A stretch of 61,551 nucleotides of DNA, counting the filler, from Ionaspis alba (Eukaryota), in NCBI GenBank assembly GCA_964255285.1. It is 7 parts of 7 records of this genome, joined end to end, with 100 filler letters (N's around TTAATTAATTAA, not from the genome) between each part and the next. Parts side by side here need not be neighbours in the genome. Positions count along the whole stretch, not along the records: positions 1 to 8,734 come from CAXUUL010000707.1; 6 more parts are not named here. One strand, 5' to 3'. Both the position numbers and the translations under genes were made by a program. This document shows positions 1-8,734 of the stretch, in pieces. The notes under the pieces were generated by a model. It ran no database searches. It saw nothing but the letters and a program-made list of their open reading frames with translations, and had not been told where the DNA came from. Positions within the stretch are counted from its first letter, which is position 1, and every line of letters begins with the position of its first letter.

Positions 1-373
1 CTTCTCGAGAGAGGTATCTGTAGGACTTCATGCGGAGCTCAGAAAGGAAGCATGTAGAACTATAGTCGAATCGTGCCATCGATTCACAAAGGATACACAT
101 GCAGTATTTTTTCATCTCTCGCTCGTGCTATTTACAGGACAGGATTCGAGAACAAAGTTCGGTATCGTAAAACAATCCCATGTATATCCAATATCACGCT
201 CAAATTCCAATTGACTCATCTCAGAATCGCTCAATCACTCCTTGTAATCATCCCAAGAGAATGCAAACAATGTGAAACAAAACGACGGCACAACATAATC
301 CAAGGGTATGTATCGCTGAGGCTCAACCCACAAACCGCACCCCAAAACACCGTCCATGCATCGCACTCACTGC

Positions 374-2588
374 TCAATAATTCTCCGGTAATCCCTGAAA
401 ATCCGGCACATTCTGCGTACAATTGAAGTCCCTTTCCCAGACCCTCTTCGGCAGAATCTCCGCCTGCATACCCAGTTTCCAACTCCACTGGACTGCATTC
501 TCCGTCACCCAAGTCCAATAGAACCATCCCCAGCCGATCTCAAAGCTAGTCATCTGCGCTTCCGCGTTCGTGAGGAGCCACCGCTTATACGCAATGCTGT
601 ATTTGGAGGCGTCGGCATTTGCGTCAGCGCATTCGCAGTTCGCCGAGGAGCCGCCGGGACAAGAGGGCGTAAGGACGGAAGCGGAGGGGTCGGGGAGGCG
701 GAGGTTGCCCTCCCACCTAGAGCCAGCGCCGACGTTGTTAAGGTTGGGGGCGCAGTCGGTGTCGGCCTGGGACCATTCGCCACAGAGAGTGGGACCGTAT
801 CTGTGGGCACAAAACATTAGTCTACTAGTTTTTCGGAAGGAATTGTTGATATGAAGATGAAACTCACCCAGTAGCAGTATCAATACTCTGCTTCATCTGA
901 CCGCTCCACCCCGCACACGCAAAACTGATCTTTTTCTTATGGTCAAATGCGATCTGATCGGTATTGAAGATCACGTATTGATGCGCATCCATCACCAATC
1001 CCTGCACACCCGACAACTTTCCTTGCCACTTTGGGAGACCCAGAAAACCATCGGCAAATACAATCGTCTGCGTGATACCGTTTTTCCGCACAATATCGAT
1101 CGCGGAAGTTGTCCAGCTGAGAACGGCCTGAACAGGTAGAACAATCATCTTGGGCTCATTGACGAGCCCATAAAGCCCGATAACGTTCTTGTACCGCGGC
1201 TGTGCAAAGAAGGTCGAAAGCTGACCATGAATATCGAGGGAGCGCTGACCGTTCGTGGCGCCGTCCGATCCAGCAAGCCAGTTGATGGCGCCTTGACGGC
1301 CGGAGTGATTCCACCCATTCTGGCTGCCAGGCAGGGCGTGTAAGTCGAGATTTACTCGTAGGCCGTGCTTGCGCGCCCACTCAATACCGCGGATGAGGTA
1401 GCGCCAGGAGATCTTGGGAACATAAGGGTCTCCGGGATATGTCGTGACAGCCCAGTAGGAGAATGGGATACGCACGTGATCGAAGCCGGCGGCTTGGATG
1501 TCGATGAAGTCTTGCTCGGTGATGAAGGAGGAGTAGTGTTTTTCAAGGGTTTTGGCCGCGTCTTGAGGACCCAGATGCTGGGTTAGTGAGTATTCGTCCA
1601 CTATGTTGAGTTTGGAGTCGTAGGAGGAGAAGAGGCTGGGAGTGATGAAGGGTTCGAGGGATAGCCAGCCCCCGAGGTTGATACCTCGGATGGGCATTTG
1701 GCCGTAATTGAATTTATCGCTGAGTTTGGGGACGTATTTGTTGGCTTGGGTTGTGTCGTCCCATTGGGAGAAGAGACCCATGACTGGTAATCCTCCCACC
1801 ATCTGGCTCGTATAGCTGACGTTGAAATCCTTGGTATCGTACCAGGTAAAGGGATCCAGATAGCTACCTTTGGCTGAGGTAGGGATATCGCTTGGACTTA
1901 TGCCGTTCAGATTCGAATTGTCCGGCGGACTTCCCGAGGAGCCACCGTTGCTGTTCTTTCCGATCACCAATACCCCAATTGGTATCAAGATAATCAGCAG
2001 AAGTACCACGAAACCGACAAGTAGCCAGCATCCCTTCCCAAATCTTCTGCCTTCCGGCTTCAGATACCCACCTCTTCGCCCCATCCCCTCCTCTAGTCTT
2101 GCGCCACTGACTATCCTTTTCTTCCTCTTTTCCACTACTCTCCCATCATCGTCTTCCCTCCGTTTGTGCTTGCCCCTCTCTTTGACCACTCGTCCTGTCA
2201 CAACCTTCTCCCTCTTCTCCTGTTCCCGCTCTCTCTCCCTTCTCCTCGCTTCCTCTTTCTGATTCAGCGCATCCAATTTCGCCAGCGAGTCAAGACTCAA
2301 GGGAGCCGAGCTAGTCTGAGACGTCGTACTGTCATCTTTTGGCCTTGAGTTGGGCTTCGAAGAGCGCTTCTGCTGTGTGTGCGATCTCCGCTTTTCAGCA
2401 GGTGTTCCTGATTTGCGCCTGCTCTTCTCTTTCTCGTAGGCAACTTCTTCAGATCCTGAGTCGCGAAGTCGGCGATCTTGTTCTAACAGAGATTCACTGG
2501 AGATGGGTCGCACTTTGGGTTTGGATTTTGGTTTCGTTTTTGCTTTGGGCCTTGAGATGGCGGGGCGGTCTTTGCGCGGGGTTGCCAT
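374..2588 (-). CDS. exgD: Membrane-anchored GH5 exo-1,3-beta-glucanase (ExgD/Exg2 type), 2 exons (2588-868, 800-374), ~715 aa
   Basis: Basic N-terminus, one TM helix (WLLVGFVVLLLIILIPIGVLVIG), GH5 motifs RGINLGGWLSLEPFITPS, HVRIPFSYW, DLHALPGSQNGWNHSG, VNEP (acid/base), GEWS (nucleophile), GWGWFYWTW. GTGAGT...CTAAT...CAG intron 867-801 joins the two ORFs in frame. Confidence 0.92.
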
Positions 2589-3435
2589 GTGAGGCCTGGC
2601 GAGCTGGAATGCGTGCGCATGCGGCTTCCCAAAATGTCTAGAATTGCAATCTTTCAGCGTCCAAAGCTGTTTTCGGTGGGATCTCGTAGTCCAATGATTG
2701 CGACGACCAATCTCGTGGATATGGAATGTAGATGTCGCTGGTGGTGTTTACCGACTGTCGATCAAGATCGCCGTTCGCAGGTCTGGCCGGGCAACGGCGC
2801 CAAGCTTTTAGTCCTCAACTCTCTGGTGGCGGTTGAATCCAGTGGATTGCTCTATGTTTCTTTTCGAAGAAGAAATGTATGTTGATGTCGTTACAATGGC
2901 ATTCGAAAGCAAAGACATAGTGACAGCTGGCCGTGTTCATCAGAGAGATGAGGGGAACGGCGAAGATGACTTTATCGAGCCATCCACTGATCTCGCCAGT
3001 AACAGCCAGGGTTGCTGCATCTCATAGTTTCCGTATCGCATACGAAACCCATGCACATTATAGCAGCAGGAGCTTCACGGTAACACGCAGACGAGGGAGT
3101 GGCTAGGCCTTGAGAAAATTCGAGAGACCCCAGCTTCATGAGACCTACGTGGTTACTCTTGGAGAGAGCACTCTTCTGTATCTTTCAGCAGCTCTTCAAG
3201 CGACCGCGAGAAGACTTCTCTTTACGCTTTATCAGCATTGACTCACATGCCATCGAAGAATACAATAATGCCGTATGTGCGGAAGCTACAACCACATATG
3301 AAAGACCTAAATCAACGCCAAGCCTTTCATCAAGCCCCACCATATCTCTCGACCCAGCTTTTGTTCAAACTGTACCAAGACTGAAATACAAACACCCCTT
3401 CAACTTTCAACGAATATCAAAATCTCATTCCCAAG

Positions 3436-4123
3436 ATGCCGCCCAAATCGTCTGCTCCACTGTCTCCACCCATTCCCGACGACGAACATGCTCCCTCCCT
3501 TCCCCTACCCATGTCTGCCTCCGTCATCCTCTCAGCCCTCCCCACCGACGCAGCTACAGCATTAGCAGATGTTGATGACATGCAAGGGAAGAAAGGTAGA
3601 CTTCCCGACCAGCGTACGATTCATACATTCCATCCTTCTCTATCTGTCCTCTTATCATTTGTTGCGTGTGTGCCACATCTTCATAGCTCCTTCAATCTCG
3701 CTTGCGAGTATGAACAAGAAACGTCTGACATTTTCGACAAGTCAAAATCCGTTTCCAACCTCTGCCTTCAGCACCAGCTCTAAGCCAGCGCGTGTTTACT
3801 ATTAGTGCTTCCAACCGCTTCGAGACGGTAGTCACGTTTCTGCGGAAGAAGTTGGGGGTGAAGAGGGAGGAGAGCGTGTTTTGCTACGTCAATAGTGTTT
3901 TTGCGCCGGGACTTGATGAAGGGGTGGGAGGGTTATGGAAGGTATGTCTTCTCTTTTTTCGGTTTCAGTAATCGTACATTTGAGATATGGGGACCCAGGG
4001 GTGGGCGATGAGGAATAGTAGTATACTGTGTTAACTTCTAGCCATTTCTAGTGTTTTAAGACGGGATTTCAAGGGGACGAGCAGCTAATTGTGGCATACT
4101 CGATGACGCCCGCTTTCGGTTGA
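3436..4123 (+). CDS. ATG12: Ubiquitin-like autophagy protein Atg12, 3 exons
   Basis: Spliced translation gives ...[39 protein letters not shown]...[27 protein letters not shown]...[12 protein letters not shown], with the C-terminal AFG conjugation glycine. Introns 3596-3741 and about 3942-4051. Confidence 0.93.
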
Positions 4124-4411
4124 GGTAATGGCCGGTGTTGAGCATCAAGTTTATAGTCTGGTCAAACATGGAGTTATTTACCGTCGAAAGACCAAGGGAT
4201 GAGGCTCAAAGGTTCGTGTAAACGTGTGGTCTCGTCTATCTATCCAAATCTATATCCTTTTATCCAAAATCTAACCAAATCGACATGCAAATCAACAGAT
4301 CTTCAGAATTCTACCTTAAAACAGTCGTAACCAGTAGACAGGAGAGGCAGGAACGACAGGGGTATATCCGCTAAAGCGCAGGACAAGAAAGAAAATCCAA
4401 AATGATCGCAT

Positions 4412-5520
4412 CTATTCTCCAATAGCTTGCTGAAATTCGTCGAGTTCTTTGGCTGGTATCGGATAAGTGTGTTCCGGTGCCGGGTAAGCTCTACTCTTGA
4501 CCTCGGCTAGAGAACGAGTTAGCCTTCGGAAAAGGCCTTACGACATGAACGAGACATGCCTTTATACGACTCGATTGCTCTCATACTCTCCCCCCAAACA
4601 TCACCATATTTCTTGACAAACTTCGGCAGAAATCGTCCAGGAGGGAAGTTGCCAGACATATCAACCTGAACTAGGACTTGCCCGGAGCAGCCGTTTCCAG
4701 CGCCAATGCCAATAGTCGGAATCCTCAACTTCTTGGTGACAATAGCAGCTACTTCAGCAGGAACGGCTTCTAGGACCATAGCAAAGCAACCTGCTTCTTG
4801 TACGGCGAGGGCATCTTCGAGAACTTTGATAGCGCCTGCTGTTGTTTTCCCTTGGACTCGGAAGCCGCCCAACGCGTTTTGTCGTTGAGGAGTTAGACCG
4901 ACGTGACCTAGTACGGGGATACCTGCTCGAGTGATCCGTTCTATTGTCGGAGCCATTTCCACACCGCCTTCGAGCTTGATAGCTTGAACCCGGCCTTCTT
5001 TGATGACTCGGATGGCAGTCTCTAAGGCTTGCTCGGGGGCTACTTCATAAGAACCCATGGGGAGGTCTCCAATCTATTGAAGAGGTTAGTATAGTGAACA
5101 GCAACAATATTTAGGGGAACATCTTACGGTAAAGGCGGCTTTGGTTGCACGAGAAACGCTCCGGCAATGGAGGATCATTTCCTCGAGCACTACCTCGCTC
5201 GTATCTTCCATGCCTAGAGCTACCATTGCGAGACTATCTCCCACTAAGATCATGTCCATACCGGCGGCATCGGCGACATGAGCACTGGGAAAATCGTGAG
5301 CTGTGATCATAGTGATAGGTTCTTGCTTCTGATGTAATGAGCGAAGAGTATTGATAGTGACTTTCTTCCTCTGATTCGTTGGTGGTGCGCCCATGGGCGA
5401 GTGGGAACTCTGACGAGTCTGACATTGCGACAGCACAACTCTAGGAGGGACAGGAGTCGTAGGCTTCCATGATCGTGGTATCGGTCGCAGTACACTCGGT
5501 TTCATGAGTCCGTAAGACAT
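4412..5520 (-). CDS. panB: 3-methyl-2-oxobutanoate hydroxymethyltransferase (ketopantoate hydroxymethyltransferase), likely mitochondrial presequence, 3 exons
   Basis: Motifs ITMITAHDF, ILVGDSLAMV, GDLPMGSYE, IKLEGG, GHVGLTPQ, PTIGIGAG, GQVLV, C-terminal YPAPEHTY. Introns 5127-5074 and 4559-4507 (GC-AG). Confidence 0.95.
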
Positions 5521-6456
5521 GCTTTCGAAGTGGGGGTTTTTCCACGAATTGCGGGATGGATTATAGATAAAGATGATGACGGGCCACGTATGTCAGAGAT
5601 GAAAGGGTCCATTGTGGGCAGGAGAGAGTCCGCTGCCTTTAATAATACCTAAGCTCGTGATGGTGAGTGCTGCGGATTATGAGGTACGAGTAGGAGGTTT
5701 TGGGGATTATTTTTTCTTTCGAAGCTGAATTGCTCCATGCGACCGAGGTTGCAGAACCGAGGACGAGGGGTGTTGGCTTTGGGCTTAGCGTCCCCAAGGC
5801 CTTTCAGGTACGAAAACTTTCATACCATCGTTAACTCTACAATAACAATGAGGTATTAGGTATCGGGGAGACCTCCGGTAGTGGCATGATGCGCATGGAC
5901 AGATTCTTTTCCCATTGGGGTACGGACATCCAATCAGATACGCCCAAAGACTGTTGCTTTGCATTTTGCAGCAGTTGAGAGCGATTTTTCTACAGCCTTA
6001 TGCTGGACAGTTTTATGCATTGGCATTATTATCTCCACGTTATGCCAGATGCATAGGTGATGATAAAGAACAGCTCCCTCGGTGGAGGATGTACGTCGTG
6101 ACCATCCCACTCGTGATTCCCAGACCGACCCTCAAACCCTTCGATTCCTTACCATTTCTCTAGAACAAGTTTCTCCTACAACTCACTACCACCTGAACCC
6201 ATCTCAGCGCTTGCTCAAGTCAATTCCGATACATCCGTCTTCGCCCGCAAGCAACAAAGCCACAGCTTGAGAGTTCTTTATCTCGTGGATGGCCCACCAG
6301 ATAGCCCATCCGAGTCAGCCTACAAGCAGAACGTGAAGCATTCCAGGATAGCATCATCGCCTATACTTGTCATATATTCTAGCTAGAATTCAAATACCTG
6401 CTAGAAAGCAAGACTCCGTCTTAGGCGCTCCGAGTTTGCAGGTATTGGGAGGCACG

Positions 6457-7619
6457 ATGAGTAGCCCAAAGCGGAGGATAGAGACGGATGTGAGTCAACA
6501 GTTAAATGATGGCCACAGTATGAAAGGATACATAGAATACTAATCGAAATCTTTTGCGCGTGGCTACAGGTGATGAAGTGAGTTCCTGCACCTCTGTATT
6601 TTCACGAGAAACCAGGACTGACGTATTTCTCAGGATGTATGCCCAATTCCATGGATTACTCCCATACACCAACGATATTCCCCCCCCTTACCACATATCG
6701 GAAGATGAGGAAGCTGAGAGCAAGGGAATTGTAGGATGATGAGCGACTACGAGGTGACGCTAGTCAACGACAACAGTCAGTATAGCCCATTCGAAAGGGC
6801 TCGTGGCTCTACCGTTGTCACGGGTCGCATATATCGCATCGCATATACACTGACGCCATGATACTAGTGTACGGCCCTTTTCACTACACCGCCTCCGACT
6901 TATCAGATCGAGAGATAGCCATACATACTCACACAGAACTAGGCAAGAATTCTTCGTGCGATTCAAGGGACCCGATGAGAGTATGGCTACCCTGGCAAGG
7001 TCACACCCGCAAAAACCGAAATACTCACATGAAAATATAGCACCCTTCCAAGGCGGGCTCTGGAAAGTGCACGTCGAGTTGCCCGACCAATACCCGTACA
7101 AAAGCCCCAGCATCGGCTTCGTGAACCGCATCTTCCACCCCAACATCGACGAGTTGTAGGCCTCTTTCCCCCAAAACAGCCTAACGACGCACCTCTGATG
7201 CTCGGTCACAGATCCGGATCCGTCTGCCTGGACGTTATCAACCAGACCTGGTCGCCCATGTTCGACATGATCAACATCTTCGAGGTTTTCCTGCCGCAAC
7301 TACTCCGATACCCGAACCCGACGGATCCGCTGAACGGAGAGGCAGCGGCGCTGCTGATGAGAGAGCCGAAGAGCTACGATGCGAAGGTTAAAGGTGAGTG
7401 ACTGGTTTTCAGGAAGCGAATGGCGCTCCCCCTTTTCTACTTCTTCTTTGCACGGGAAATAGGCGACTGACGGCCAGGGCAGAATATGTGGCCAAGTATG
7501 CGACCAAGGATGCTGCAGATGAGGCCGGAGATGATAGCGAGTCGGACGATTCGATGAGTTCGGTCGGGAGTTTTGAGTCAGGGGATGAAGAGCCGGCCGG
7601 GCAGATGGATGAAGTATAA
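6457..7619 (+). CDS. UBC8: Ubiquitin-conjugating enzyme E2 (Ubc8/UBE2H). Predicted 9 exons: 6457-6489, 6570-6577, 6634-6636, 6735-6775, 6868, 6943-6980, 7041-7155, 7212-7393, 7483-7619 (185 aa)
   Basis: Model reads [39 protein letters not shown]...[10 protein letters not shown]...[22 protein letters not shown]...acidic tail. Exon lengths sum to 558 nt (in frame). Gene identity is secure; the microexons are inferred. Confidence 0.93.
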
Positions 7620-8734
7620 TGATCAAGAGGGTTAGCTCTCGGGGGACTGAAGCGAGGTCTCAGAGGTGTTTGCGCGGGTGATTGATGTATGGGACTTGGT
7701 TATCGGGGCGCGTTTGGACGGGGCGTTTATGGATTTGGGCATATGGGGCTGGTGCATGTTTCGCGGAGATTCCTGATAGTACAAGATAGTTTGCCATCTC
7801 TCTACTCGAAACAATCTCGTAACAGGCGCAAGGTCCGGGTACTACAGAGGAAGGCTACACCGCTTCGAACGTCAAAGAACTTCTAGCAGCACCAGTGGAG
7901 AGTGAAAAATAGGGGCTATAAGCGGGAGCATGTTCGCGTAACAACGTCTAGAACGAATAGTCGACCCGATTGGCGGCAATGATTGCCGCCAGACCGTGGA
8001 CATGAGAAAGCTGAGATGCGGTTTACAAAGACGCAGCTCGTCTTACTCAAAAAGGGTGACAGCCGAACAGGTCGTACAGTTACAGAAACGACCTGAGGGA
8101 AAGCCGCAGTCACACAACATCCCCATATCCTCGCGGCAATTCCTTCGAAACCTCGTAGGAAAAAAAAAAACCTCATCGGGCGTCCGAACTCCTCAGCCTC
8201 TAGCAATACTCTTTGCACAAATCCACCAAATCCCGAAACAGCGAACTCGTCCGATCTGAGATCGAAGCACGGCCTTCGATGATGGTGTGAATAATCATCA
8301 TCATTCACATGCAAGCCACTTGCCTATGCGTTTTGGAAAGAAAGGGGGTTGCAAACCCTTGAAAGCCGGCCGGAAGAAGGGCCACGTGGGAAATGCTGGA
8401 CTGAAGTTCCGCGATGCGAGGGCGTGGCGCGGAAGGCGTGGCGCTGGTCTAGAAGGCGGCGTGGAAGGTTGTGGATAGACGGCACCAATCAGTCCTGGTA
8501 GTGGTGGTGAAGTGTTCTTTTTTGTTTTTTTGTCGGCTTGTGCTGGGACTTGCTGGTTTCCGGTGTGGCGATGGTGAGTGATAGGCGTTGTTGAGACAAG
8601 CGAGTGAGTAGGATCGGTGAGATGGATGACTGGCAGTGAAGGATCTGATGCTGTTGTTGCGAATGTGACAGCGGTGGCCGGTGGGTTGGTGACCGCATGC
8701 TACTACTGGTAGAGTCACGCTTGTCGCGACCGAG

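Follow-up and report, generated by a model that had tools for sequence, protein, structure and literature searches.

A predicted single-nucleotide exon in UBC8 of Ionaspis alba, with a two-intron layout shared among filamentous ascomycetes

The UBC8 locus and position 6868

The T at position 6868 of the window (the whole 61,551-nucleotide stretch of Ionaspis alba DNA that was analyzed, filler included) is almost certainly a constitutive one-nucleotide exon of UBC8, a gene for an E2 enzyme of the UBE2H family; the introns on its two sides are ordinary ones of the U2 type, each complete in itself. One base separates a branch point and AG from a GT in 55 of 55 two-intron loci, that of the window included, and the complete introns on either side are of normal size (92 and 74 nt here). 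The T is needed for the reading frame and for a conserved Met, as judged from loci that read ATG or TG at this place and from the alignment with yeast Ubc8, and in a relative it is present in presumed spliced sequence. For the mRNA of I. alba itself, inclusion of the T is predicted by homology.

Window positions 1 to 8734 are a single contig of an 18.3-Mb assembly with 1282 contigs. On the plus strand, the UBC8 model has nine coding exons and eight GT-AG introns of 56 to 98 nt, and it encodes a 185-amino-acid protein that reads DN-M-QEF across the region in question. Coding exon 1 spans 6457 to 6489, with the start codon at 6457; an intron after CDS nucleotide 33 is found in 50 loci. Two microexons of the model come next. 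The first, of 8 nt (6570 to 6577), matches at 8 of 8 positions in a pair of spliced and genomic sequences from relatives (L015 and L027, discussed below), and the second, of 3 nt (6634 to 6636), matches at 3 of 3 positions in that pair and in another (L065 and L066); an intron after CDS nucleotide 41 is found in 44 loci. The 3-nt exon had not been mentioned in the initial annotation.

A 41-nt exon (6735 to 6775) supplies in its last base the A of the Met29 codon. Intron 4 (6776 to 6867, 92 nt, after CDS nucleotide 85) follows, with donor GTCAGT, branch point CTGAC at 6850 to 6854, and acceptor TAG at 6865 to 6867. The single T at 6868, for which the gene model, the orthologous loci, and the spliced pair all speak, is the middle base of the codon. 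Intron 5 (6869 to 6942, 74 nt, after CDS nucleotide 86) has donor GTACGG, a candidate, noncanonical branch point, TACTCAC, at 6926 to 6932, and acceptor TAG at 6940 to 6942, and the 38-nt exon beyond it (6943 to 6980) opens with the G of Met29. The A before the first intron and the G after the second are found in 55 of 55 two-intron loci. The upstream exon end, both donors, the CTGAC, both acceptors, the T, and the downstream exon start had all been located correctly in the initial annotation; the candidate TACTCAC had been overlooked there.

The rest of the model consists of coding exon 7 (7041 to 7155, 115 nt), which also emerges from the spliced alignment of loci; coding exon 8 (7212 to 7393, 182 nt), covered by PF00179 and carrying a CLDVIN motif that we take to be the catalytic Cys site; and the last coding exon (7483 to 7619), with an acidic tail and the stop. 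The candidate branch point TACTCAC is common to intron 5 and its neighbor, intron 6 (6981 to 7040), and the branch point of intron 3 is CTGAG.

The protein itself is ordinary for a Ubc8/UBE2H enzyme; what is unusual is the structure of the gene alone. The protein has a full-length UBC domain (Pfam PF00179), and a search with a close homologue, P0118, as the query found yeast E2-24 kDa (8pmq; E = 7e-72) and human UBE2H (8pjn; E = 6e-67) closest. In the alignment with yeast Ubc8 (8pmq), a Met stands at the place equivalent to Met29, with no gap. The genome of I. alba contains one 100% match to UBC8 and two distant paralogues at 36 to 40%.

Direct joining of 6775 to 6943, with the T skipped, shifts the frame, as had been claimed at the outset, and runs into a stop after 68 codons; with the T included, the frame is open for 185 amino acids. 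Retention of intron 5 gives a stop after 93 codons, and retention of intron 4 gives one after 56. Of all 43 in-frame alternatives with a single GT/GC-AG intron between 6745 and 6980, none yields the conserved DN-M-QEF. The identity of the T would be fixed by the Met codon; a message that skips it loses the frame. The proposal that a one-base exon builds A|T|G and restores DN-M-QEF is borne out by the open frame, by conservation in relatives, and by a near-identical spliced and genomic pair.

An assembly error or a broken gene in this genome has to be considered, given that the assembly is fragmented and that two haplotypes are seen close by in one sequencing run, X1. However, a single X1 contig spans 6508 to 6987 at a depth of 93.5 with zero differing letters, although X1 probably represents the source sample itself and is therefore not an independent check. 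The layout is also common to 54 foreign loci, and all other UBC8 exons are intact. Conservation refutes an error of this kind, and its probability is negligible. In X1, two versions were seen of 6317 to 6537 and of 6958 to 7114 (16 and 7 differing letters, respectively, and one indel each), with none over 6538 to 6957; the two versions reflect two haplotypes or strains in the sample. The contigs from X1 are DNA-like, as are those from a second run, X2, which has no cover over 6810 to 7013; neither run shows a spliced junction at this place.

Orthologous loci and spliced sequence from relatives

Metagenome contigs were scanned with UBC8 exon 8, and the best 80 of 390 relatives, mostly ascomycete-like, were kept. 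Five of the 80 (L030, L039, L041, L049, and L077) were dropped because an anchor exon was missing. The remaining 75, with both flanking exons, comprise 54 with a long intervening sequence, one (L029) with one short intron, eight with neither intron of the pair but with others, and 12 that are wholly intronless. Conservation of AG-T-GT in orthologous UBC8 introns had been suggested as a check; an acceptor, a T, and a donor (HAG-T-GT) stand behind a branch-point-like motif in 54 of the 54 foreign two-intron loci. With the window's own locus included, a central HAG-GT pair separated by A, C, or G was found in 0 of 55 long intervening sequences, and all 55 start with GT after an A and end with AG before a G.

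Grouping the intervening sequences at 65% identity gave 34 clusters, the window's own locus included, with a median between-cluster identity of 0.50; these clusters are kin to each other, so that p-values overstate their independence. HAG-T-GT, placed so that neither intron is shorter than 40 nt, is present in 34 of 34. In 500 dinucleotide shuffles, the mean was 1.05 of 34 and the maximum was 5, falling to a mean of 0.26 and a maximum of 2 when a loosely defined branch point was required as well. As a control, an internal HAG-N-GT occurred in 1 of 31 other UBC8 introns of at least 85 nt. A spliced aligner run without a preset base placed introns after CDS nucleotides 85 and 86 in all 55 sequences. 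One locus, L053, has two candidate central sites.

Over the 34 clusters, introns 4 and 5 have median lengths of 60 and 63 nt (ranges, 46 to 92 and 50 to 95 nt), compared with medians of 54 to 72 nt for the other UBC8 introns, and apart from the splice signals their interiors are unrelated (median identity, 0.50). The total intervening length modulo 3 is evenly spread (11, 10, and 13 clusters), and therefore read-through cannot explain the intervening sequence. Where both introns are absent (8 + 12 loci), 20 of 20 read ATG. L029, the sole single-intron state among the 75 loci, keeps the first intron of the pair alone and then continues with TG, which argues that the T is exonic.

The sequences that appear to be spliced point the same way. 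Intronless L015 and genomic L027 are 98.7% identical over 1199 nt, including the untranslated ends; all eight introns are absent from L015, the T is kept, and the exons of 8, 3, 41, 1, and 38 nt match fully. L025 gave the same result as L015 (98.8% over 863 nt), and a second, more distant pair, L065 and L066, has the same structure at 94% over the coding region. The absence of all eight introns suggests that L015 is RNA derived. Alternatively, L015 may be a processed copy, and even then its source would be a spliced message.

These data bear on an alternative already raised in the initial annotation, one long intron running from a shifted donor at 6780 to 6942, with one extra residue (DN-SQ-QEF) and an incidental AG-T-GT at its center. 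The frame is indeed open, for 186 amino acids, and six named protein models have a DN-S-x-Q-EF junction of this type. However, the 6780 donor lacks the +5 G that 243 of 257 real donors have; a GT at +5/+6 is present in 24 of 34 clusters and has its own +5 G in 6 of those 24. The intron would be 163 nt long, and 3 of 257 introns reach 160 nt. The corresponding junction was found in 0 of 12 intronless contigs, DN-M-Q/S-EF was found in 28 of 29 unnamed proteins with both anchors, and a central signal present in 34 of 34 clusters would be left unexplained. A shifted donor is therefore very unlikely.

Nor does the region qualify as a stwintron, in which one intron lies inside another and splits one of its splice signals, so that the resemblance noted at the outset is a loose one. 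What stands of it is the presence of two tandem sets of U2 splice signals and a presumed two-step removal by intron definition, as described for stwintrons in Pezizomycotina; intron positions one base apart also figure in the [D1,2]/[A2,3] intron-shift model (PMC5587772). The defining interrupted signal is missing: a base between stwintron parts is intronic (PMC5587772), whereas each of the two UBC8 introns carries its full set of signals (donor, branch point, and acceptor) before any splicing takes place, and the single base that separates them is part of a codon. A [D1,2] stwintron needs a G before the first donor (PMC5587772), where an A stands in 55 of 55. An [A2,3]-type internal intron could conceivably begin at the GT made up of the T and the G that ends the first acceptor, and the last acceptor is indeed followed by G in all 55, but this donor has a +5 G in 1 of 34 clusters and its use would remove the T and a G, leaving the frame shifted. 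Retention of the T in spliced L015 refutes a stwintron as the productive route, and we consider this reading extremely improbable.

A different possibility is that the exon is real but regulated, its skipping or retention making unproductive messages that tune the level of Ubc8 via nonsense-mediated decay. All of the mis-splicing routes above end in a premature stop, and the donor of intron 5 is weaker than that of intron 4 (mean matches at +3 to +6 of 2.38 versus 3.00). In plants, VPS55 has isoforms with and without its one-base exon (PMC8831610). Against regulation, a skipped or retained form was found in 0 of 12 intronless contigs, though assembled contigs drop rare isoforms and such forms could escape them. 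In addition, the intron pair has been lost outright in some lineages (eight loci), and the unconserved intron interiors argue against conserved regulatory elements. Regulation of this sort thus seems unlikely, and we favor a constitutive exon.

Branch points and the order of splicing

Intron definition applies in Pezizomycotina (PMC5587772). We imagine that each of these short introns (46 to 95 nt) is recognized across its own length, in which case the T at 6868 would need no recognition of its own as an exon. A single base lies between the intron 4 acceptor and the intron 5 donor, which suggests that the two splicing reactions take place in sequence. On balance, we lean toward intron 4 usually being removed first, with skipping avoided by this upstream-first order. 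The strong branch point of intron 4 would capture the donor at 6776 ahead of the weaker one in intron 5, which would keep the two outer exons from being joined directly. Removal of intron 4 would also change the exon side of donor 5 from AGT to CAT or TAT, nearer to the U1 consensus, in which the exon side of the donor is CAG. In the 34 clusters, donor 5 is preceded by AGT before intron 4 exits and by CAT (27 clusters) or TAT (7 clusters) afterward.

The branch points are consistent with such an order. Canonical CTRAY was found in 30 of 34 introns 4 versus 17 of 34 introns 5, with 13 to 0 discordant pairs (P = 2.4e-4, a value inflated by related species). Intron 3 lies further 5′ and yet is canonical in 22 of 33 (9 to 1 discordant versus intron 4; P = 0.02, likewise inflated), so that the pattern is not a simple 5′ gradient. 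Over the UBC8 introns of the 34 clusters, canonical branch points were present in 87 of 93 introns that precede exons of at most 11 nt versus 103 of 164 others. The idea that intron 5 is specially weak was set aside, its 17 of 34 comparing with 86 of 130 for other introns before long exons (P = 0.11); what stands out is how strong intron 4 is. The window is in keeping with this, having a canonical branch point in intron 4 and TACTCAC in intron 5.

One might envision a general fungal rule, in which a near-perfect branch point before a tiny exon causes that intron to leave first and, in the case of a one-base exon, its departure builds the exon side of the next donor. The 8-, 3-, and 1-nt exons of UBC8 would then be an ancient run of such exons, with an order dependence that is stwintron-like without the region being a stwintron, and possibly with a tunable frameshift/nonsense-mediated decay switch acting on the Ubc8 level. 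This is a speculation suggested by sequence patterns, and it may well fail.

Phylogenetic spread, gene models, and known one-base exons

Judged by the nearest named proteins, the one-base exon layout is conserved across several classes of filamentous ascomycetes. For the two-intron loci, these proteins come from Alternaria, Parastagonospora, Cadophora, Hyaloscypha, Cercophora, Fusarium, Lobaria, Arachnomyces, and Geoglossum, genera that span the Dothideomycetes, Leotiomycetes, Sordariomycetes, Lecanoromycetes, Eurotiomycetes, and, with Geoglossum, the Geoglossomycetes. The Ubc8 protein of the window is itself nearest to one from Geoglossum (96% over 122 amino acids), which serves as a loose placement only. 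Several Sordariomycete-like loci have a single 11-nt exon, without the intron between the 8-nt and 3-nt exons.

In the protein tree, a quick version of 144 columns in which 37 of 67 inner branches are open and which fixes neither the root nor the origin of the intron pair, the loci with neither intron need five changes, four of them forced by well-supported branches. Three such loci (L014, L019, and L072) are nested in groups that keep the pair. The simplest reading is repeated loss of both introns together, as would be expected from recombination with spliced cDNA, with L029 representing the one single loss. Intron loss mediated by cDNA is usually expected to show a 3′ bias. The pattern in L011, L024, L035, and L057, a well-supported group that is without all five 5′ introns and has kept the three 3′ introns, is the opposite of that bias. 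L075 is a divergent locus on a long branch, with introns after CDS nucleotides 44, 124, about 223, 421, and about 452 and with neither intron of the pair; it is possibly an outgroup.

That such an exon would be invisible to most gene finders, as the initial annotation had it, fits the public gene models. Among 157 named fungal Ubc8 models, a set skewed toward odd models and made up of representatives of 90%-identity clusters together with ten hand-picked clusters, 19 have the correct junction, 64 have both anchors but join them wrongly, and an anchor is missing in the others (one in 62, both in 12). Some of these models are partial, and a share of the correct ones may belong to species that do not have the introns. 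The junction is correct in 19 of the 83 named models with both flanking exons, again in a biased sample; among 71 unnamed proteins, many of which stem from short contigs, both anchors are present in 29, and 28 of these have the right junction. The errors include read-through at donor 4 (DN-S...), continuation from the T into intron 5 (DN-MY...), use of the +5 donor (DN-S-x-Q), and a shifted acceptor (DN-KF). These types match the two-intron layout. The one-base exon explains a widespread annotation fault. The residue from the 3-nt exon is missing in 38 of 62 named models versus 0 of 19 unnamed proteins and 0 of 12 intronless contigs. Any construct, primer, or phylogeny that relies on the faulty models is wrong at the N terminus of Ubc8.

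One-base exons are already known in plants and fungi. The Arabidopsis APC11 exon was proven with base-substitution reporters (Guo and Liu 2015, PMC4674806), and conserved one-base exons are described in plant APC11 and VPS55 (Yu et al. 2022, PMC8831610). Like the UBC8 exon, those of APC11 and VPS55 are constitutive, frame-critical, coding, deeply conserved, and absent from reference annotation, and intronless versions in some lineages have been attributed to intron loss (PMC4674806, PMC8831610). They differ in that both are plant genes and APC11 was proven by reporters, whereas the UBC8 exon is known from sequence comparison and is flanked by introns of 46 to 95 nt.

Closer to hand, a one-nucleotide exon is reported in the CYP621A P450 genes of Fusarium (Nelson and Syed 2026, PMC12940212), where it is presented as the first found in a fungal gene. 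In both cases the gene is a nuclear gene of a fungus, and annotation misses a lone base between AG and GT that forms the center of a conserved codon. The kinds of support are also alike, the CYP621A exon being backed by orthologues, an intronless homologue, and transcript reads. The CYP621A exon, however, is a G described from Fusarium species only, in a rarely expressed gene (PMC12940212), whereas that of UBC8 is a T in a core E2 gene of several ascomycete classes, and UBC8, unlike CYP621A, has 8-nt and 3-nt exons just upstream.

The statement that a codon split over three exons is very rare was too strong for fungi, as 13 one-base exons have been annotated by long reads in Coprinopsis cinerea (PMC12230235). 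These, too, are internal exons of a fungal nuclear genome, though that of a basidiomycete. The term "ubc8" does not occur in the part of the supplementary text of that report that was searched, and the list of the 13 genes lies outside that part; the list may include a UBC8 orthologue. A literature search confined largely to openly accessible papers found no report of a UBC8 microexon, and the UBC8 case is apparently unpublished.

UBC8 thus adds a widely conserved example from a core gene to the short published list of one-base exons. With introns of about 60 nt each in many species, its intron pair is a compact natural reporter for how splice sites one base apart are handled and in what order. 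The proposed branch-point rule, if true, would be open to study in any filamentous ascomycete used as a model in which both introns are retained.
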